A stretch of DNA of 64,000 nucleotides from an uncultured Methanosarcinaceae archaeon. GTDB lineage: Archaea; Halobacteriota; Methanosarcinia; Methanosarcinales; Methanosarcinaceae. Positions 1,244-20,757 of this stretch are shown here, piece after piece; the first letter of the stretch is position 1, and each line of letters opens with the position of its first letter. The notes below the pieces were generated by a model. The model had not been told where the DNA came from. It did not search any database and saw only the letters and a program-made list of their open reading frames with translations. The position numbers were made by a program, and so were the translations under genes. Location: positions 372,482 through 436,481 of the forward strand of contig CAVSHT010000009.1 in assembly GCA_963727895.1 (NCBI GenBank), given 5' to 3'.

Positions 1244-1317
1244 TGGGCCCGCTGAGATTCGAACTCAGGACCTCCGCCGTGTGAAGGCGACGTCATAACC
1301 GTCTAGACCACGAGCCC
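1244..1317 (-). tRNA. tRNA-Val (anticodon CAC)
   Basis: Reverse complement GGGCTCGTGGTCTAGACGGTTATGACGTCGCCTT-CAC-ACGGCGGAGGTCCTGAGTTCGAATCTCAGCGGGCCCA folds as a cloverleaf with a TTCGAAT T-loop; CCA is not encoded. Confidence 0.96.
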
Positions 1318-2469: not shown

Positions 2470-3057
2470 TTACTTATTTTGTACGATAAGCAACCCATAA
2501 AGAATTGTTTTTGGAACAGGGGGATTCTCAGGAGTGCCTGTTGTTATCTTTTCTTCAGGATAGCCAAGGTTTTCGCAGGTGTAAAGCTCAGCTTTGATAC
2601 TCAGTTCTCGCAGGACTTCCGCAACTTCAAGTGAGCCAAAGTTTTCTTCCGGAAGCAGGAAGATATTTCTTCCGTTCTTTAATTCCCGGATAAGTTCAAC
2701 TTTTGCGGGTTCGGAATCTCGACCATGAGCTGTAATTGCACAGAGATTGGTAAGATTAACTTTTGTACGAGCACAAGCCACCTGCATCGAGGAAATTCCC
2801 GGAATAACTGTGTCCTTTTCACCTGCAAATTTTCCAAGCCCTGAAAACATAGGATCGCCGGTAGATAATATTACTGCATCTGCTGGCAAGAGATGAAGAG
2901 ATTTATAATCCTTAATCGGTTTTGCCTCGCAGGTAATATAATCCTGAGCAATTTCAAGAGCCCTTTTTGCACCATAAACCACCGAAGCTTTCCTTATAGC
3001 CTGTATTCCCTCTTCCGTGAGCATTCCAGGCCCAACTCCGACTCCTACTACAATCAT
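2470..3057 (-). CDS. cbiE: Cobalt-precorrin-7 C5-methyltransferase
   Basis: VVGVGVGPGMLT, STGDPMFSGLG, PGISSMQVA and ENLGYPEE tetrapyrrole methylase motifs; adjacent to cbiD. Confidence 0.85.
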   Translation of the reverse strand: MIVVGVGVGPGMLTEEGIQAIRKASVVYGAKRALEIAQDYITCEAKPIKDYKSLHLLPADAVILSTGDPMFSGLGKFAGEKDTVIPGISSMQVACARTKVNLTNLCAITAHGRDSEPAKVELIRELKNGRNIFLLPEENFGSLEVAEVLRELSIKAELYTCENLGYPEEKITTGTPENPPVPKTILYGLLIVQNK

Positions 3058-3193: not shown

Positions 3194-4213
3194 TTAACTC
3201 TTGCTTTTACTGTCCATCAGGACCGAACCGTCTCTGTCAATTACTACAATCCTTGCACCTTTCCCTTTCTCAATTGCCATTTCAAAAGCTTCTTTCAGAC
3301 GAGGATGTTCAGGATCTTTTTCAAGCATCTCGACAACTGTTGCATATTCACCGTCTTTAAGCATATCCGGGTTTCCCCATTTGAGAACAAGACCAGGAAG
3401 CCCACAGATAACTACATCGCCAGAAGCGTAATCCAGTCCTTCTGAAATCCTGCTTCCTATCATAACAATTGTATAATCGGGAAAAAGCATATGTGAATAG
3501 CGCATTCCTATACGGCCTGTAGTTAGGACTACTTTGTCCGTGCAGCGGATAAGATCTCCTTTCATCTCACCCAGATGGTCGTTCCAAGGCTCAACAAAAC
3601 CCGTGCTTCCAAGCACAGAAATTCCACATTCAACCCCTATTCTGCTGTTCAGAGTTTCCTTTCCAATTATTTCCCCGTCAGGAATTGAGATTGTAACCTC
3701 GGCTCCTCTCAAACCCAGTTCTTCTACAGCTTCCTTCACTGCTGCCTTTATCTGTTCCATCGGTTTTGGATTAATAGCTGGCTGACCCCTTGGAACTTGA
3801 AGCCCATCCCTTCTAACAACTCCAATACCTTTTCCTCCGAGAATTCGGATTTCTTCTGCTTCCTTTGCTTCTCCTACAAATTCGAGTCCCCGGGTAATAT
3901 CAGATTCATGGTCATTAAGAATCTTTTTCACAACTGCATATCCCTTTGAGGATTCAGCGACCTCAAGATGAGCTCTCAATCCTACAGGAGTCGGAACGGA
4001 CACACTATCAACCGCTTTCTTAAGGGAAAGGACTGCAGCTTTTGCAGCAGCACTTGCTGTAGTTCCTGTAGTGTATCCTCTTTTGAGGACAGAACCGTCA
4101 CTTAGAACCACAATCATCCCGGATGCGATTTTTGTTTCAAGCTCTTCCCTTGGCAATCCTGTGCGGGCAATCCATTCGTCAGGAATTTTGAAATTGTTAA
4201 CAGGATCTATCAT
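3194..4213 (-). CDS. cbiD: Cobalt-precorrin-5B C1-methyltransferase
   Basis: [22 protein letters not shown] and [24 protein letters not shown]biD signatures. Confidence 0.93.
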
Positions 4214-4394
4214 GGGGAATATTCAGAGGTTTTTTATTATAAATGTATTGACGTGAAAATAGGAAAAAACCCAATAAATCCTCAGTGTAAGCCTTGCTCA
4301 CTTCCTGCTCACAACATTTGATAACGACATTAAGCACTATAGAATTATGGAATACAGAAAATAGAAAAAAGGCGGATAGAATACAGAAAATAGA

Positions 4395-4575
4395 AAAGAG
4401 GTGGCACCATTCCAGGATTAGGGAATTTTATGGGGATTCGTGTTTTGGAAATGGATATTATCCTAGATTTTGGAACGATTGGGGATCGTTTCTTATTGGG
4501 GGGTTTTTGGGTTGGTGTGTGAAAAATAGCCTTGTGGAATGATGCCTATTTCAAACGCCAGGATTCGCCTGGCAC
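4395..4575 (-). ncRNA. Candidate structured small RNA (unassigned family)
   Basis: Minus-strand TATA box TTTATATA (4598-4605), 5' hairpin GTGCCAGG-CGAAT-CCTGGCGT, 12-bp long-range stem (4535-4546 with 4403-4414), internal hairpins with CCCCA loops, and a T-rich tract after the closing stem. Confidence 0.55.
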
Positions 4576-4884
4576 ACTATTACATCTTAAGTTCTATTAT
4601 ATAAACATATAGGAAACTAAGAATGACATCTCTAAATAGAACTATATTTTCAGATTAGAGACATATTGACTAGTTATTTACATAAAATCACTACATATTC
4701 GAGCTACAAACTGATTTTTTAACCGTGATGAAAGAAATTCCTTTTAAAAAAGAGATTCATTTAATTTTAAATGAATTAAAAGAAAAAAGTAGTACTGTTC
4801 TGTATTTATAAAATATAGAAAAATTAAACTCTGTAAGAGAGATATGAAAAAACAGAAAGGATATTTTTCAGGTTACAGCTTTTT

Positions 4885-6942
4885 TTACAGGATTCTTGCA
4901 AACATGCGGTCCAGCTCTCCTTTCGTAAATGTAATTATAGTAGGTCTTCCATGAGGACAAGAGTATGGATTTTCTGCCCTTTTAAGTTGTTCTATTAGAT
5001 CTTCCATCTGCCTTGGGTTACAGACAGCTCCACCCTTAATTGCGGCTCTACATGCAAGGATTTTACAGACCTTTTCCGAAATACCGGTATCTTTTTTAAC
5101 TTTTCCTGAAGCCAAAAGGTCCGAAACTATATCATGGATAATATCAGTATCTTCAAGCCTTCCGAAAACCTCTGGCACGAAGGTAACCACATATGTATTC
5201 TCGCCAAATTCAGAAATCCCGAAACCGTAGTCTTCAAGATATGGAATATATTCTTCCATAAGCACTTTCTCTTTAGGAGTAAGGTCTATGGTTACAGGTG
5301 TTATCAGCTCCTGCACACTGGATTTTTTCATTTTTAAAACTTGTTCGTAAAGAATTCTCTCATGAGCAGCATGCTGATCAATAATAACAAGGTCTTCTCC
5401 CTTTTCAGCAAGAATATACAATTTAGAGACCTGCCCTATAATCCGGAGGTCTTCAAGAGAGTCAATATTAGAGTTATTTTTTAGTTTAGACCGTCCTTCT
5501 GAACGTATTTTTTCTCTATATTTCACTTCAACATCTGTTTGTCCATTTTCCTTATCATGAAGAACTGTTTGTCCTTTAACAGCATCTTCATTCTCTCTTT
5601 CCTGCTCTTTTTTATGATCCAAAGTTTTATCTATTTTCTGCGTAGCATCCTCTACAGTGAAATTCAAGAGACGTTCAGATCTTTTTAGTTTTCTTTCGGT
5701 ATCTTTTACCGGATATGTATAAGTTTCAGCTTGTGTTCTGGGAATCTTATCGTTTTCAGGAAAAATGGTCTTTTCCAGAGTTTCTGGAATCTTTCCAGCC
5801 GTTTTCTCGAAAGTTTCCGCGGCTTCTGAGACCTTAAATCCATCTGAGGGACCTGAAACTTCAAAAGTTTTCTGGAAGATTTTATCTCTTTTTTCTCTGA
5901 TTTCAGGAATTAAGATATTTTCTGAAAGTACATTTTCAATCACAAATGTAACTGCATCTCCAAGTTCTTTTTCCCGGCTGAAACGTACTTCAGCTTTACG
6001 AGGATGAACATTTACATCCACCTCTCCGGGATCGAGAACCAGAGAAAGTACTGCTACAGGATAGCGTCCCTTTGGAATCTTGGTATAGTAACCTTCGCGA
6101 ACAGCTTTATTGATGGCTCTTGAAGTCACTGGACGGGTATTTACGAAAAGAAAAAGCTGATCACTTTCTCCTCGAGTGATTTCAGGCTTTGAAATATATC
6201 CCTGAATCTCAAAATTTTCAGTTTTATATTTCAGAGGAAGCATGGAACGAGCCGTATCTGGCCCTAAAAGATTTACAATGCTTTTGAAAGACTCATTTGA
6301 CCCCGCATTTCTTATGATTTGCTTCCCTTCACTTAACAGAGTAAAAGAAATTTTCGGATTTGCCAGGGCAAGCTGCATAACTGTCTCTGTAATATGGGCA
6401 AGCTCAGTACGATCACTTTTCAGGTATTTCTGCCTTGCTGGAATATTATAAAATAGATCTTTCACATGAACACTCGTACCTGGAGCCGTGCCTGTATCCG
6501 AAGTTTCAAGCACTTTGCCCCCATGAACCGTTATTTTAGTGCCTGTGATATCTTCTGGAGGTCGGGTAAGAATTTCCACTTTTGCAACAGCCGTAATAGA
6601 TGAAAGAGCCTCTCCCCTGAAACCCATTGTAGAAATAGTATCAAGATCTTCAATACGCGTAAGCTTGCTTGTTGCATGTTTTTTGTATGCGAGCAAGGCA
6701 TCCTCTCTACTCATTCCACAACCGTTGTCTCTTACAAGGATAGAGCGTTTTCCACCCTTTTCTACTTCAATACGGATATCCGTAGCTCCTGCATCAATTG
6801 AATTGTCTAGCAGTTCTTTTACTATAGATGCTGGACGTTCAATTACTTCTCCTGCAGCGATTTTATTTATCGTATCTTTGTCAAGGATTCGGATTTTGTT
6901 TCCTTGAATATTTTCTTTATTTTGAATAGATTCTTCCACCAT
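4885..6942 (-). CDS. mutL: DNA mismatch repair endonuclease MutL
   Basis: NKIAAGEVIERPASIVKELLDNSIDAGA, GFRGEAL, DQHAAHERILYE and CPHGRP motifs. Confidence 0.97.
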   Translation of the reverse strand: MVEESIQNKENIQGNKIRILDKDTINKIAAGEVIERPASIVKELLDNSIDAGATDIRIEVEKGGKRSILVRDNGCGMSREDALLAYKKHATSKLTRIEDLDTISTMGFRGEALSSITAVAKVEILTRPPEDITGTKITVHGGKVLETSDTGTAPGTSVHVKDLFYNIPARQKYLKSDRTELAHITETVMQLALANPKISFTLLSEGKQIIRNAGSNESFKSIVNLLGPDTARSMLPLKYKTENFEIQGYISKPEITRGESDQLFLFVNTRPVTSRAINKAVREGYYTKIPKGRYPVAVLSLVLDPGEVDVNVHPRKAEVRFSREKELGDAVTFVIENVLSENILIPEIREKRDKIFQKTFEVSGPSDGFKVSEAAETFEKTAGKIPETLEKTIFPENDKIPRTQAETYTYPVKDTERKLKRSERLLNFTVEDATQKIDKTLDHKKEQERENEDAVKGQTVLHDKENGQTDVEVKYREKIRSEGRSKLKNNSNIDSLEDLRIIGQVSKLYILAEKGEDLVIIDQHAAHERILYEQVLKMKKSSVQELITPVTIDLTPKEKVLMEEYIPYLEDYGFGISEFGENTYVVTFVPEVFGRLEDTDIIHDIVSDLLASGKVKKDTGISEKVCKILACRAAIKGGAVCNPRQMEDLIEQLKRAENPYSCPHGRPTIITFTKGELDRMFARIL

Positions 6943-6989: not shown

Positions 6990-9689
6990 TCAATTAATCA
7001 ACCTTTTCAGCTCATGAAGCTTATTGAGAGCTTCTATTGGAGTCATCTCATCTACATTCAGCTTTCTCAGAGATGCTTCTACTGGGCTTAACCTGTTTGC
7101 CTTTGAACTTCCACCACTGTCTCCAGGGTCAAAAAGCATCATCTGAGTATAACGTGCTGTTGTCTTATTTTTCTTCTTTTTTCCGTTTTCTCCATCTTCA
7201 GTTTCTTCAAGCACGTTTTCTTTTTCGAGATCTTTTAGAATTTCATTTGCCCGTTCGATTACTTTTTCAGGAACGCCTGCAAGTCTTGCAACCTGGATTC
7301 CATAACTTCGGTCTGTCGCTCCAGGCACTATTTTTCTCAGGAAAACAAGTTCATGACCTTCTTCTTTTACTGCGATGTGATAGTTTTTGACTCTTTTTAG
7401 TTTCTCTTCAAGAGCTGTGAGCTGATGATAATGAGTTGCAAATAGTGCTCTTACTCCCACTTTTCCTCTGTTATGCAAGAATTCTACAACAGATTTGGCA
7501 ATGCTGTACCCATCATAGGTACTTGTTCCCCTACCGATTTCATCAAGAAGTACAAGACTTTTAGGGCTTGCATTATTAAGGATGTTTGCAAGTTCAACCA
7601 TCTCTACCATAAAGGTGCTTTGCCCGCTTGCAAGATCATCAAATGCCCCTATTCTTGTAAAAACCTGATCAATAACCCCTATGGAAGCATAAGATGCAGG
7701 AACAAAAGACCCTATCTGAGCCATAATAGCTATAAGAGCAGTCTGTCGCATATAAGTAGACTTGCCTGCCATGTTTGGCCCTGTTATTAACAAAAACTGA
7801 TTTTCGTTACAATCCATTTCAGTATCGTTTGGAACAAAGCCTCCATATACGGCATTTTCAACTACCGGATGTCTTCCGTCCCGTATTAAGATCTTACAGT
7901 CATTTGTAAGTTGAGGCCTGATATAATTATTATTTTCTGCGACTTCAGCCAGAGTCGCAATGACATCAAGCGAGCCTATTTTTTTGGCAGTTTCCTGGAG
8001 TTCTCTTGAATGGACTGAAAGCGCCTGTACAATTTGTGTAAAGATTTCGTATTCGAGAGCTACAGCTTTTTCATTAGCTGTCAAAATAAGACTCTCTTTT
8101 TCCTTGAGTTCAGGAGTAAAAAAACGCTCGGCATTTGCCATGGTTTGTTTTCTGATATAATCATCAGGAACCTGGCTACTGTTAGAATTCGTGACCTCTA
8201 TATAATATCCAAAAACCTTATTATATCCCACTTTAAGAGATTTAATACCACTTCTCTCTCTTTCTTTCTGCTGAAAATTTGCAATCCACTGCCGACTGTT
8301 GCTCGCAATATCCTTGAGTTCATCAAGTTCTTCATTATACCCAGGTTTTATCATGCCTCCTTCCCTAACAGAGATAGGAGGCTCATCAACTATTGCTTTA
8401 TTTATCATTTCAGACAGATTTTCAAGCTCTGAAAACGATTCAAGCCCAATTGCAACTTTAGTTAAAAGTTCAGATTTAGCATATTTCAAGAGAGAATCAC
8501 GAACAGAAGGTAAGACTTCAAGAGATTTTTTAAGAGCGATAAGATCCCTTGCGTTTGAATTTCCGTATACCACTCTGCCCACGAGGCGTTCTATATCCCT
8601 TACTTCTGAAAGCCATTTCCGTAAATCATAGCGGAGCAGAGGATTTGCTGTCAGTTCCTCTACAGCATCGAGCCGAAGGTTGATATTTTCTACGGAAAGC
8701 AGAGGTTTTAAAAGCCATTTTTTCAGGGTGCGGCTTCCCATTGGAGTTTTAGTGCAATTTATAGTCCGATAAAGAGAATTTCCATCTCCTTCATCTCTCA
8801 CGTTTCTCACGATTTCGAAATTTCTTAAGGTTATGGAATCAAGTATCATGAATTCTGAATTTGAGTAGGTTCTCAAAGTATTGATATGGGTAAGCTTTCT
8901 CATCTGTGTGGTCTGTGCATATTCCAGAGCAGCACAGGCAGAATACACTGCGAAATCAAGATTTTCACAACCCATGCCTTCTAGGGTTGCAACCTTGAAA
9001 TGAGCTTTCAATCGTTCTCTGGCTTCCTTTGATCCTGAAATATCTGGAGCAAATTCCTGCACAATAGTCTGGGTTCTCAGCCGATCTACAAGATCAGAAT
9101 TTCCATATAGAGATGGAGGCAGGATGCACTCGGAAGGGCGCATGCGGGCAAGTTCACTTAGAAGCTTCTCAAAGTTTTCTGAGTCCCTAAACTGTGTTGT
9201 AAGGAATTCCCCTGTGGAAATATCAAGAAAAGATACTCCAACTTCGATTTCTTTTTCACTGTGCTTTCCAGATCTTCCGATTTCCCGTCCAACAACCGCC
9301 ATGAGATAATTGTTTGAGGCATCAAAAAACATGGAAGAATCAATTGCGGTGCCTGGCGTGACGACCCTGACAACTCCTCGCTTTACAACTCCCTTTGCCT
9401 TTTTCGGGTCTTCAAGCTGTTCGCAAATTGCCACCTTATACCCTTTATTTATTAGCCTTGGCAAATAAGTGTCAATTGCATGATAGGGTATTCCTGCAAG
9501 AGGCATTTTTTCTCCTGATTTGTCCTTCCCTCGAGCTGTAAGCGTGATCTCAAGCTCTTTTGCAATAATTTTTGCATCATCTCCGAAAGATTCGTAGAAA
9601 TCTCCCATACGGAAGAAAATTAGGGTGTCAGGATATGCCTGCTTGGCTTCGTAGTACTGGCGCATTGCAGGGGTCATCATTTCAGTCAT
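6990..9689 (-). CDS. mutS: DNA mismatch repair protein MutS
   Basis: FFRMGDFYE, Walker A TGPNMAGKSTYMRQ, STFMVEM, DEIGRGTST and SYGIQVARLAG motifs. Confidence 0.97.
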   Translation of the reverse strand: MTEMMTPAMRQYYEAKQAYPDTLIFFRMGDFYESFGDDAKIIAKELEITLTARGKDKSGEKMPLAGIPYHAIDTYLPRLINKGYKVAICEQLEDPKKAKGVVKRGVVRVVTPGTAIDSSMFFDASNNYLMAVVGREIGRSGKHSEKEIEVGVSFLDISTGEFLTTQFRDSENFEKLLSELARMRPSECILPPSLYGNSDLVDRLRTQTIVQEFAPDISGSKEARERLKAHFKVATLEGMGCENLDFAVYSACAALEYAQTTQMRKLTHINTLRTYSNSEFMILDSITLRNFEIVRNVRDEGDGNSLYRTINCTKTPMGSRTLKKWLLKPLLSVENINLRLDAVEELTANPLLRYDLRKWLSEVRDIERLVGRVVYGNSNARDLIALKKSLEVLPSVRDSLLKYAKSELLTKVAIGLESFSELENLSEMINKAIVDEPPISVREGGMIKPGYNEELDELKDIASNSRQWIANFQQKERERSGIKSLKVGYNKVFGYYIEVTNSNSSQVPDDYIRKQTMANAERFFTPELKEKESLILTANEKAVALEYEIFTQIVQALSVHSRELQETAKKIGSLDVIATLAEVAENNNYIRPQLTNDCKILIRDGRHPVVENAVYGGFVPNDTEMDCNENQFLLITGPNMAGKSTYMRQTALIAIMAQIGSFVPASYASIGVIDQVFTRIGAFDDLASGQSTFMVEMVELANILNNASPKSLVLLDEIGRGTSTYDGYSIAKSVVEFLHNRGKVGVRALFATHYHQLTALEEKLKRVKNYHIAVKEEGHELVFLRKIVPGATDRSYGIQVARLAGVPEKVIERANEILKDLEKENVLEETEDGENGKKKKNKTTARYTQMMLFDPGDSGGSSKANRLSPVEASLRKLNVDEMTPIEALNKLHELKRLIN

Positions 9690-16976: not shown

Positions 16977-18464
16977 ATGGCAAAAAATAATGCAGTTGCA
17001 GGATTTAATGCACTTAATGGCGTAGAATTAAACCTTTTTACGAATGATGAACTTAAGGCAATTCACTATGCAACCATGGAAGTTCTGATGGAACCTGGAA
17101 TTCAGGTTTCTGACCCTGAAGCAAGACAGATCTTCAAGGAAAATGGTTGTGAAGTTGATGAGAAAACAAACGTTGTAAAAATTCCGGAATATCTGGTAAG
17201 AAAAGCTCTTCAGCTTGCACCGTCAAGATTTGTTCTCTGGGGCAGAGACAAAAAGTTCAATACAGTCCAGGAATGCGGAGGAAAAGTTCACTGGACCTGT
17301 TTTGGTACCGGTGTAAAGGTGTGCAAGTACCAGGATGGAAAGTACGTAACGGTTGACTCTGTTGAAAAGGATATTGCAGACATCGCAAAACTCTGTGATT
17401 GGGCAGAAAACATTGACTATTTCTCACTGCCTGTTTCTGCAAGGGATATTGCAGGCCAGGGTGCCCAGGATGTACACGAAACACTTACTCCAATTGCAAA
17501 TACTGCAAAACACTACCATCACATTGACCCTGTTGGCGAAAATGTAGAGTATTACAGGGATATTGTAACAGCCTACTATGGGGGAGACGAAGAAGAAGCA
17601 AGGAAGAAACCAATTTTCTCAATGCTCCTCTGCCCAACCAGCCCTCTAGAACTCAGTGTAAATGCATGTCAGGTCATTATTAAAGGTGCCCGTTTCGGAA
17701 TGCCGGTTAACGTCCTGAGTATGGCAATGTCAGGTGGATCATCTCCTGTTTACCTGGCAGGAACTCTTGTAACACACAATGCAGAAGTTCTTTCGGGAAT
17801 TGTACTTGCTCAACTTACAGTTCCAGGAAGCAAAGTATGGTATGGAAGTTCAACAACTACTTTTGACCTGAAGAAAGGTACTGCGCCTGTAGGATCTCCG
17901 GAACTTGGTTTGATAAGCGCGGCTGTGGCAAAACTCGCGCAGTTCTATGGTCTTCCTTCATATGTGGCAGGTTCTTAGTCTGATGCCAAGATCCCGGATA
18001 ACCAGGCAGGACACGAGAAAACTATGACAACTCTTCTGCCTGCACTTGCTGGTGCAAACACAATTTATGGAGCCGGGATGCTTGAGCTTGGAATGACATT
18101 CTCAATGGAACAGCTTGTTATTGATAATGATATTTTTAGCATGGTAAAGAAAGCCATGCAGGGAATTCCTGTATCTGAAGAAACTCTTGCAGTTGAATCT
18201 ATCCAGAAGGTAGGGATTGGAAACAATTTCCTTGCCCTGAAACAGACCAGACAGCTTGTAGACTATCCTTCTAACCCAATGCTTATTGACAGGCATATGT
18301 TTGGAGACTGGGCAGCAGCAGGATCAAAAGACCTGGCAACAGTTGCACACGAGAAGGTTGAAGATGTTCTTAAAAACTACCAGGTAAAGCCAATTGATGC
18401 AGATATTCTCAAGGATATGCAGGCAGTCGTGGACAGGGCTGATAAAGCATTTAGAGGCATGTAA
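16977..18464 (+). CDS. mttB: Trimethylamine:corrinoid methyltransferase, pyrrolysine at codon 334 (TAG 17976-17978)
   Basis: [11 protein letters not shown] start after a GGAGG RBS. ORFs 16941..17978 and 18024..18464 share one frame and are joined across a single TAG (YVAGS-O-SDAKIPD), giving 495 aa. Confidence 0.97.
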
Positions 18465-19353: not shown

Positions 19354-20757
19354 ATGGCAACCGAATATGCTTTACGTATGGGAGACGGGAAACGTGTCTT
19401 CCTTACTAAAGAGAAAATTATAGAGGAGATTGAAGCAGGAACTGCAAATGCTGCTGATCTTGGTGAGATACCTACCCTCAGTGCTGATGAAATTGACAAA
19501 CTTGCAGAAATTCTTATGATGCCTGGCAAGGCCGTCAGTGTTGAACAGGGTATGGAAATTCCTGTAACTCACGATATAGGCACTATCAGACTTGATGGTG
19601 ACCAGGGTAACAGCGGTGTTGGGATTCCTTCAAGCCGTTTAGTTGGCTGCATGACGCACGAACGTGCTTTTGGTGCCGATACAATGGAACTTGGTCACAT
19701 TGACTACAGTTTCAAGCCTGTAAAGCCTGTTGTATCAAATGAATGCCAGGCAATGGAAGTATGCCAGCAGAACATGGTAATTCCACTCTTTTACGGCGCA
19801 ATGCCAAACATGGGGCTTTACTATACACCAGATGGACCTTTTGAGAATCCAGGAGACCTTATGAAGGCTTTTAAAATACAGGAAGCCTGGGAATCAATGG
19901 AACACGCTGCTGAGCACCTGACAAGGGATACTGTGTGGGTTATGCAGAAGCTTTTTGCCTCTGGTGCCGATGGTGTTAACTTTGACACAACCGGTGCAGC
20001 AGGCGATGGTGACATGTACGGTACACTCCATGCAATTGAAGCTCTCAGAAAAGAGTTCCCTGAGATGTACATCGAAGCTGGAATGGCTGGAGAATGCGTA
20101 CTCGGTATGCATGGAAACCTTCAGTACGAAGGCACTACACTTGCAGGACTCTGGCCACACCAGCAGGCACCTCTGATTGCAAAAGCCGGAGCAAATGTTT
20201 TTGGACCAGTGTGCAACACCAATACCAGCAAGACCTCAGCCTGGAACCTTGCCCGTGCAGTAACTTTCATTAAGTCTGCAGTACAGGCATCTCCAATTCC
20301 ATGTCATGTAAATATGGGAATGGGAGTTGGTGGAATTCCAATGCTTGAAACTCCTCCTATTGACGCAGTCACCAGGGCGAGCAAGGCAATGGTAGAAATT
20401 GCAGGCGTCGACGGCATATAGATCGGAGTCGGCGACCCAATGGGTATGCCGATTTCCCACATAATGGCTTCAGGTATGACTGGTATAAGAGCTGCAGGAG
20501 ACCTTGTAGCTAGAATGGAGTTCTCAAAGAATATGCGCATTGGAGAGGCAAAAGAATACGTGGCAAAGAAGCTAGGTGTTGACATTATGTCTCTTACAGA
20601 TGAGCATGTTATGCGCGAACTGCGTGAAGAACTTGATATTGGGGTCATAACTTCAGTACCAGGAGCTGCAAAAGGAATTGCAGCAAAGATGAATATTGAA
20701 AAATTGTTAGATATAAAGATAAATTCCTGCAATCTATTCAGAAAGCAGATTGCTTAA
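19354..20757 (+). CDS. mtbB: Dimethylamine:corrinoid methyltransferase, pyrrolysine at codon 356 (TAG 20419-20421)
   Basis: [13 protein letters not shown] start. ORFs 19348..20421 and 20440..20757 are in frame across a single TAG (GVDGI-O-IGVGDP), giving 467 aa. Confidence 0.97.

Follow-up and report, generated by a model that had tools for sequence, protein, structure and literature searches.

What occupies the 671-nt spacer between mutL and cbiD in the genome of an uncultured Methanosarcinaceae archaeon is the question raised by a 64,000-nt stretch of its DNA (hereafter, the window; GenBank assembly GCA_963727895.1, contig CAVSHT010000009.1, positions 372,482 to 436,481). A first-pass annotation of this window, made from the sequence alone, had suggested that the spacer encodes a stand-alone structured RNA of ~180 nt with repeated CCCCA loops. 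Combining a comparative analysis of orthologous loci with public RNA reads from a relative, we conclude with high confidence that the element hosted by this spacer on the minus strand (4605-4387) is a real and independent gene for a structured non-coding RNA. This bears out the earlier observation apart from minor corrections, and the interpretation offered with it is supported in part. It can be described as an archaeal intergenic small RNA (sRNA) of unusual architecture, and its phylogenetic support is excellent.

Architecture and conservation of the element

The fold of this RNA is markedly more stable than expected by chance, as the minimum free energy of a 196-nt stretch amounts to -38.2 kcal/mol vs. 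-27.35 +/- 3.26 kcal/mol for shuffled sequences (z = -3.33), none of 200 being as good. An alignment of 58 sequences from the genus (A1, obtained with MAFFT) was combined with a hand-written structure consisting of a 5' hairpin (P1), a long-range stem (P2) and a hairpin (P3) within the domain that P2 encloses (Table 1). Standard pairs are found in 97.4% of the 1353 pair cells of this alignment, vs. 28-45% in controls with the 3' partners displaced by one to three columns, and changes on both sides of a pair occur in 39 cells vs. 17.5 +/- 3.1 in shuffles. Covariation, proposed earlier as a check, was then counted helix by helix over 64 sequences (the 58 from the genus and six from its sister genus, g13), and compensatory changes are observed in each of the three: at pair 9/23 of P1 (UA 30, CG 13, UG 13; n = 64), at pair 39/174 of P2 (UA 55, CG 5, all of the latter in the sister genus, and UG 4) and at pair 93/105 of P3 (CG 31 and UA 26 of 64, i.e., GAACG/CGUUC vs. 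GAAUG/CAUUC). The GC-rich 5' hairpin and the 12-bp stem with one G-U pair that the first-pass annotation had read in the window are both present. The innermost pair of P1 is formed in just 4 of the 64 sequences, which reduces the conserved hairpin to 7 bp. P2 (11-12 bp overall) has ten of its twelve pairs standard in all 64 sequences, one pair with a single C-U mismatch (in one genome) and a closing pair formed in 38; with the exception of the closing pair and this mismatch, its remaining changes are all to G-U. In every one of the 64 sequences, P2 is predicted to pair with a probability above 0.8.

The domain enclosed by P2, initially described as a G-poor, A/C-rich stretch of ~120 nt, measures 120-122 nt in the window and contains 6.6% G, 33% C and 39% A. 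Across the 64 sequences, its length varies from 88 to 152 nt (median 112) and its G content from 3.8 to 11.9%, with medians of 36% for C and 39% for A. Because it is so strongly depleted of G, this domain is mostly unpaired (median unpaired probability 0.70). Its best conserved portion is a single-stranded core of 25 nt, with six invariant alignment columns (A54, T55, T56, T57, T59, A63) and ten nearly invariant ones (A61, C62, C64, C66, C67, A68, A69, C70, C71, C72), which is also the only portion that BLAST detects in the most distant congeners (query 335-384). The A-U3-N-U tract of this core resembles an Sm/Lsm site (A-U(4-6)).

Downstream of P3, the domain carries a C-rich module that is present, as judged by eye, in one copy in most genomes, with extra copies in five loci (L009, L010, L013, L032, L044) and three copies in another (L025); an automated count of the module motif gave 0-3 per sequence. 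The three CCCCA motifs originally noted in the window are all there, namely in the P3 loop (4490-4474), in the GAAU...AUUC mini-hairpin (4439-4423) and in a C6 run (~4503-4498). Their placement in two hairpin loops does not extend to the family as a whole, the mini-hairpin being a non-conserved part of the module duplication of a few lineages. Moreover, just 0-1 runs of C4 are found in six genomes of a divergent clade (L059, L062-L066) in which P1, P2, the core and the G-poverty are retained within a shorter domain of 88-105 nt. With the C4 runs lost in these six genomes, the property common to all members is therefore a clamped, G-poor, open strand with a fixed core rather than the CCCCA loops. 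The anatomy says that selection keeps a strand that is unable to self-fold (having almost no G) or to wobble, that is held by a clamp, and that combines one fixed stretch with duplicating modules.

As far as sampled, the element is restricted to the genus Methanosarcina and one sister genus. A BLAST search with the spacer revealed the block in 57 of 58 other genomes of the genus; the sole miss (G023) is an assembly of 81% completeness, whose only match falls elsewhere in the spacer. Conservation within the spacer is confined to two blocks, at ~4648-4387 (promoter and RNA) and 4275-4217 (cbiD promoter), the intervening sequence being unconserved. A covariance model of the RNA (R1), which matches the own genome over a stretch equivalent to 4383-4581 of the window with 160.9 bits, identified one copy in each of 34/34 sampled genomes of the genus and 6/6 genomes of the sister genus. 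In samples searched under strict filters, to be read as "not found" rather than "absent", the model matched 0/110 genomes from 14 other genera of the family and, at the order level, 0/32 genomes from the family's other genera and 0/102 genomes from five other families.

Table 1. Positions in the window of the RNA, its parts and the surrounding features
Feature	Position	Strand	Basis or remark
Promoter: upstream block uuuccuaua and TATA box TTTATATA	4591-4620 (box 4605-4598)	minus	sequence; columns at least 90% identical in 58 sequences
Predicted RNA, ~182-189 nt	4387-4575	minus	R1 match and read cover at the orthologue in G001 (L056:1097-1286)
P1, 5' hairpin GUGCCAGG-CGAAU-CCUGGCGU	4555-4575	minus	conserved 7 bp; loop with conserved AGUA
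P2, 5' strand GGCAUCAUUCCA	4535-4546	minus	long-range clamp
Core AAGGCUAUUUUUCACACACCAACCC (also UAUUUUUCACACACCAACCC), 25 nt, single-stranded	4509-4533	minus	alignment columns
P3, hairpin AACGAU-CCCCA-AUCGUU, CCCC(A) in loop	4474-4490	minus	pair counts over 64 sequences
Module C4-A-N-UUCC-R-A(4-5)-C and partial second copy including the GAAU/AUUC mini-hairpin	4421-4455	minus	alignment
P2, 3' strand UGGAAUGGUGCC	4403-4414	minus	long-range clamp
Termination zone: T4 4397-4394, T4 4390-4387, T6 4370-4365, T4 4361-4358	4345-4400	minus	sequence
cbiD TATA box TTTATAAT	4243-4236	minus	22 nt ahead of the ATG at 4213
cbiD	3194-4213	minus	named by Pfam; ATG at 4213
Tetrapyrrole methylase gene	2470-3057	minus	named by Pfam
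mutL	4885-6942	minus	named by Pfam
mutS	6990-9689	minus	named by Pfam

Predicted transcript boundaries, expression and earlier records

Both ends of the conserved block carry the signals expected of an independent gene. The TATA box that had been proposed ahead of the 5' hairpin matches the archaeal consensus and is separated by 22 nt from G4575, with which P1 begins. A spacing of 22 nt between TATA box and start is standard archaeal promoter geometry, from which we predict transcription to start at G4575; the distance from the TATA box to P2 stays within 53-61 nt in 60 loci. Past the 3' strand of P2, the reported U-rich tract begins at 4397 and belongs to a zone of dense T-tracts seen across loci: within 60 nt, a mean of 2.97 tracts of at least four T was counted in 63 loci vs. 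0.26 in 126 control windows, and 58 of these 63 loci have at least two such tracts. In the window, a 19-nt direct duplication with a period of 29, TTTTCTATTTTCTGTATTC (4397-4379 and 4368-4350 of the minus strand), gives two copies of the T-tract terminator motif; in other species, the RNA is likewise followed by repeated TTTTCTAT units. The element thus lies in an intergenic region with its own promoter and terminator, as an archaeal intergenic sRNA does. Its non-coding nature is indicated by a 1-nt indel within the conserved 3' block and by indels across the whole domain.

The gene downstream has a promoter of its own. Confirming what had been suspected in the window, the region GTCAATACATTTATAAT...ATG (4211-4260) is near-identical in 61/61 loci of the two genera, with the TATA box 22-23 nt from the ATG, a geometry from which a leaderless cbiD mRNA is predicted. 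Between this TATA box and the start codon, the sequence includes CCUCC/CCUCU, a motif that recalls an anti-Shine-Dalgarno rather than a Shine-Dalgarno sequence. cbiD follows the RNA on the same strand in 61 of the 64 loci, the other three ending at contig ends, and the two are separated by an unconserved spacer of 47-687 nt. Because cbiD has its own conserved promoter, the RNA is regarded as a stand-alone gene.

Expression was assessed for the orthologous stretch (L056, 801 nt) of a relative (G001) in four public RNA runs. Three contig-based runs (X1, X14, X16) contain long contigs over everything and are uninformative as to transcript ends. The fourth run (X24; raw reads, ~6% examined, 40 reads on the stretch, ~30-nt inserts as judged from adapter read-through, library type unspecified) gives cover of the RNA on its own strand, with mean depths of 0.2-6.7 in bins 1105-1293 of L056, the predicted RNA being at 1097-1286, and leaves both 835-1104 (the spacer to cbiD) and 1294-1347 (the promoter) without cover. 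The depth over cbiD reaches 9. Among these 40 reads, no pile of 5' or 3' ends above the reporting threshold is seen at the RNA. The reads of this relative of the window's organism support a discrete RNA, albeit thinly, and they agree with the stand-alone transcript envisaged in the first-pass annotation. The same run also covers L056:1348-1455 (minus strand), ~100 nt between the mutL stop (~1503) and the RNA promoter, with six reads ending at 1369; the cover probably stems from a mutL 3' untranslated region (UTR) whose end is defined, or from another small transcript.

As to whether the RNA is already on record, the proposed check against Rfam yielded no family: at the gathering threshold of Rfam 15, the whole window gave no match within 4200-4900, and a search of 3500-5500 with E up to 10 gave three chance-level matches of 12.7-17.2 bits vs. 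gathering scores of 41-80. For comparison with published sRNAs, one genome of the set (G010) was taken as M. mazei because the first 110 residues of its CbiD are identical to those of MM_1681 (supplement of PMC11456600); in it, the RNA lies 207 nt past mutL and 288 nt ahead of cbiD. The coordinates of MM_1681 (2018546-2019565) and MM_1682 (2020241-2022310) in M. mazei Go1 (PMC11456600) delimit a spacer at 2019566-2020240, which places the RNA orthologue between these genes at ~2.0198-2.0200 Mb. Among the entries listed in the tables of PMC11456600, nothing other than these two genes starts at 2019xxx or 2020xxx, and those listed in its Ribo-seq tables include no small open reading frame (sORF) or feature at the orthologous coordinates. 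The sRNAs given in the available part of its source data lie elsewhere (sRNAs041 at 799881-800086, sRNAs162 at 2915256-2915319 and sRNAs154 at 4065321-4065452), in accord with the positions of sRNA154 between MM3337 and MM3338 (PMC3177094) and of sRNA162 between MM2441 and MM2442 (PMC3510493). Literature searches by words and by 12-13-mer strings returned nothing on an RNA between mutL and cbiD, and none of the papers listed for the strings dealt with archaea. Judging by the listed entries of one table, the RNA seems to be missing from the published M. mazei sRNA list; this part of the comparison with published lists suggested at the outset came out negative. One may speculate that the start site of the RNA has been filed as belonging to a long cbiD 5' UTR.

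The gene on the other side of the RNA is less constant than cbiD. mutL is found upstream in 56 of the 64 loci, and in the divergent clade mentioned above it is replaced by a divergent carbamoyltransferase gene, cbiD being kept at 297-299 nt. In one close relative (L013, on contig C137 of G026), no mutL was detected in the 1.6 kb that precede the RNA, and the mutL-proximal end of the spacer matches ~1.7 kb further on, suggesting that a sequence has been inserted between mutL and the RNA promoter. Antisense to the RNA, the plus strand of the window has a TTG-start open reading frame (ORF) of 82 codons (4294-4542); the many interspecies indels in this region argue against a gene here. Gathering-level Rfam matches elsewhere in the window are PYLIS_3 (mttB, 96.8 bits) and PYLIS_2 (mtbB, 114.1 bits), at 17976-18075 and 20419-20518 of the plus strand, and one tRNA (1244-1317, minus strand); the PYLIS matches flag genes for methylamine methyltransferases, farther along the window, that contain in-frame pyrrolysine codons.

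How the RNA might act

The mode of action that we favour, tentatively and at somewhat less than an even chance, is base-pairing in trans through the core, possibly aided by Lsm. The P2 clamp would hold out an A/C-rich single strand that is wobble-free, since A and C pair only with U and G, and this strand would base-pair with other RNAs at G/U-rich sites; the main seed may be the invariant core, with the C4 motifs as auxiliary contacts, and the invariant AUUU-U tract could recruit an Lsm (Sm-like) protein, for which two genes are present in each of 5/5 genomes tested. A precedent within Methanosarcina is provided by sRNA154 and sRNA41, which contact mRNAs via exposed loops (PMC5867862). The constant site of the RNA just upstream of cbiD may reflect inherited synteny or hint at the pathway that it serves.

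A more specific version of this idea, a multi-seed sRNA whose CCCCA motifs pair with ribosome-binding sites (RBSs), had been put forward in the first-pass annotation and was put to the test. Ahead of 1358 putative starts of the genome, enrichment is seen for the 5-mers AGAGG, GAGGT, GGTGA, AGGAG and GGAGG, and the partner of CCCCA, TGGGG (UGGGG), is not enriched there (28 vs. 17). Because CCCCA does not complement the Shine-Dalgarno motif of this genome, the anti-RBS reading based on CCCCA is not supported as stated; computed pairing at starts does not exceed that of shuffled queries, and the six genomes with 0-1 C4 runs point the same way. G-run variants are mildly enriched upstream of starts (GGGGT 39 vs. 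6), and a subset of genes could be reachable through them.

Several observations weigh against pairing in trans more generally. Duplex energies of the domain and its segments with the 1358 start regions differ from those with internal regions only as shuffled queries do (in one run the energies were inflated by long loops, and the signal at start regions is a composition effect only). The longest perfect complements in the own genome are of 14 nt, four being seen vs. ~5 expected by estimate, and 9-13-mers complementary to the core show no pattern near ORF starts of this genome. Complementarity to the rRNA operon of G001 reaches 13 nt at most, vs. 11-14 nt in 20 shuffles. Binding of Lsm at the core is suggested by sequence resemblance, expression by 40 reads from ~6% of one run of a relative, the variable module copy number fits a protein sponge at least equally well, and the strict adjacency of cbiD in the clade with a different upstream gene keeps a role in cis alive. 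Two further searches of the own genome were equally unproductive, as nothing stood out among over-represented 10-mers and the G4-rich partner loci comprised only coding tandem repeats. All of these target searches were crude, each confined to a single genome.

The foremost alternative, which we consider unlikely without being far-fetched, is that the RNA is a protein sponge or scaffold, a G-depleted platform whose C4, UUCC and A-rich modules and U-tract would titrate or assemble a protein that binds single-stranded RNA, such as Lsm or a KH-type poly(C) binder, much as CrcZ and CsrB do in bacteria with other proteins. Known sponge RNAs also vary in module copy number between lineages, as this RNA does (1-3 copies), and the retention of G-poverty in genomes that have lost the C4 runs suggests that an unstructured platform is under selection. 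The outcome of the target searches, in which no RNA target was found, and the Lsm genes in 5/5 genomes fit this alternative as well; if X24 were a nuclease-footprint library, its cover on a non-coding RNA would mean protection. Against these points stand the single module copy of most genomes, the lack of a candidate protein from the analysis, and the invariant 25-nt stretch, a trait more in keeping with a base-pairing seed than with a degenerate protein site. The sponge had been pictured earlier as CsrB-like; membership of that family falls because the G-poor RNA has no GGA motifs and CsrA (PF02599) was found in 0/41 genomes. The broader notion of a single-stranded C-rich platform for G-rich RNA or a protein may still hold. 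An extension of this notion, unlikely and openly speculative, would make the RNA the first archaeal "platform" RNA, with the clamp-held G-free strand as a multivalent sink for an Lsm/KH-type protein or for G/U-rich RNAs; it would then be a Methanosarcina-specific global regulator, missed for looking like a 5' UTR of cbiD and perhaps connected with the supply of cobamide to methyltransferases.

That the RNA is instead a cis element of cbiD, either a regulated leader or attenuator with read-through to cbiD-cbiE or an upstream unit modulating the cbiD promoter, appears quite improbable, in line with the earlier judgement that an attenuating leader is the less likely option. It draws on the position of cbiD directly downstream in 61/64 loci, an adjacency that survives where the carbamoyltransferase gene replaces mutL, and on a possible alternative pairing of UUCCAG in the module with CUGGAA in the 3' strand of P2, with respect to which covariation cannot discriminate; as a speculation, an assignment to a 5' UTR would also explain why the RNA is missing from the M. 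mazei sRNA table. The T-tract zone past P2 (mean 2.97 tracts in 60 nt), the separate cbiD promoter with its leaderless geometry in 61/61 loci, the unconserved spacer of 47-687 nt and the lack of X24 reads between RNA and cbiD all speak against this reading. Neither of the hallmarks of a riboswitch or cis-leader, co-transcription and a structured, conserved ligand pocket, was found; the G-poor, largely unpaired domain with its variable repeats resembles no ligand-binding aptamer, and no Rfam riboswitch matched. A pairing of CAGGAU/AUCCUG with the 5' end of cbiD, noticed by eye, was dropped, as it spans only 6 bp and is absent in the M. acetivorans-like clade.

A DNA-level element (a protein-site array, or a hairpin-forming or mobile sequence) or a small-protein gene is highly improbable. 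In its favour, stem covariation would fit DNA hairpins too, the TTCCA...TGGAA arms with G-strings on the opposite strand loosely resemble origin-recognition boxes (a weak likeness), and a conserved AUGAUGCC in P2 could begin a small ORF. On the other side, the element occurs once per genome, the conserved block is bounded precisely by a consensus promoter with the expected spacing and by a terminator zone, RNA reads coincide with this block, frame-breaking indels occur right after AUGAUGCCAC, conservation ends at the first T-tract, and the M. mazei Ribo-seq entries listed show no sORF or feature there. A miniature inverted-repeat transposable element or other repeat was ruled out by the single copy in the own assembly (the remaining 15 BLAST matches have E >= 0.46) and in every matching genome. 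A C/D-box or H/ACA guide RNA was rejected as well: the UGAUG and CUGA strings sit in perfect Watson-Crick helices, inspection revealed no ACA box, and the match to the rRNA operon of G001 is at chance level.

Relation to known RNAs and significance

Among the RNAs with which it can be compared, the closest in setting are sRNA154, sRNA41 and sRNA162 of M. mazei, which, as described in PMC5867862 and PMC3510493, are likewise stand-alone, intergenic and conserved within Methanosarcina (~65-205 nt) and contact mRNAs through exposed loops or linkers. The present RNA is set apart from them by its locus, and it further differs in its long-range clamp round a G-depleted domain and in C4 motifs that mismatch the Shine-Dalgarno motif. 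As far as the available descriptions of archaeal sRNAs go, none of them closely matches this design of a clamp round a G-depleted strand.

Other RNAs share parts of this anatomy. The base-pairing RsaE/RoxS-type sRNAs of Firmicutes are G-poor and expose unpaired C-rich motifs in loops and linkers, their UCCC matching the G-rich Shine-Dalgarno sequence. The present RNA shares with them several unpaired C-rich motifs and a G-poor sequence, and departs from them in that UGGGG is unenriched at starts, six genomes have 0-1 C4 runs and, given the lack of an Rfam match, there is no relationship in sequence. CsrB/RsmZ and CrcZ are protein-sponge RNAs, of which CrcZ is A/C-rich; accessible, repeated short motifs with a copy number varying between lineages are a common trait, in contrast to the absence of CsrA (0/41) and GGA motifs, the mostly single full module and the invariant 25-nt core, which has no counterpart there. 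Y RNAs are characterized by a terminal or long-range stem closing a pyrimidine-rich internal loop and by an oligo-U tail, and both traits recur here; however, the clamp is accompanied by a separate 5' hairpin, and a Ro (TROVE, PF05731) gene was found in 0/101 genomes of the family (the control matched in 2/14 named genomes). A Y RNA was ruled out on the ground of the missing Ro protein.

Overall, this RNA emerges as a good candidate for the next sRNA to be studied in methanogens, being present in single copy in every matching genome, with all helices covarying, a near-fixed core of 25 nt and an apparently uncatalogued status. M. mazei, M. acetivorans and M. barkeri are genetic model methanogens, only three of whose sRNAs have a known function, and the RNA is testable directly in such model strains. 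If it proved to be a sponge or a regulator connected with cobamide synthesis, methanogen regulation would gain a further layer; otherwise, it would still constitute a well-defined additional family for RNA databases.

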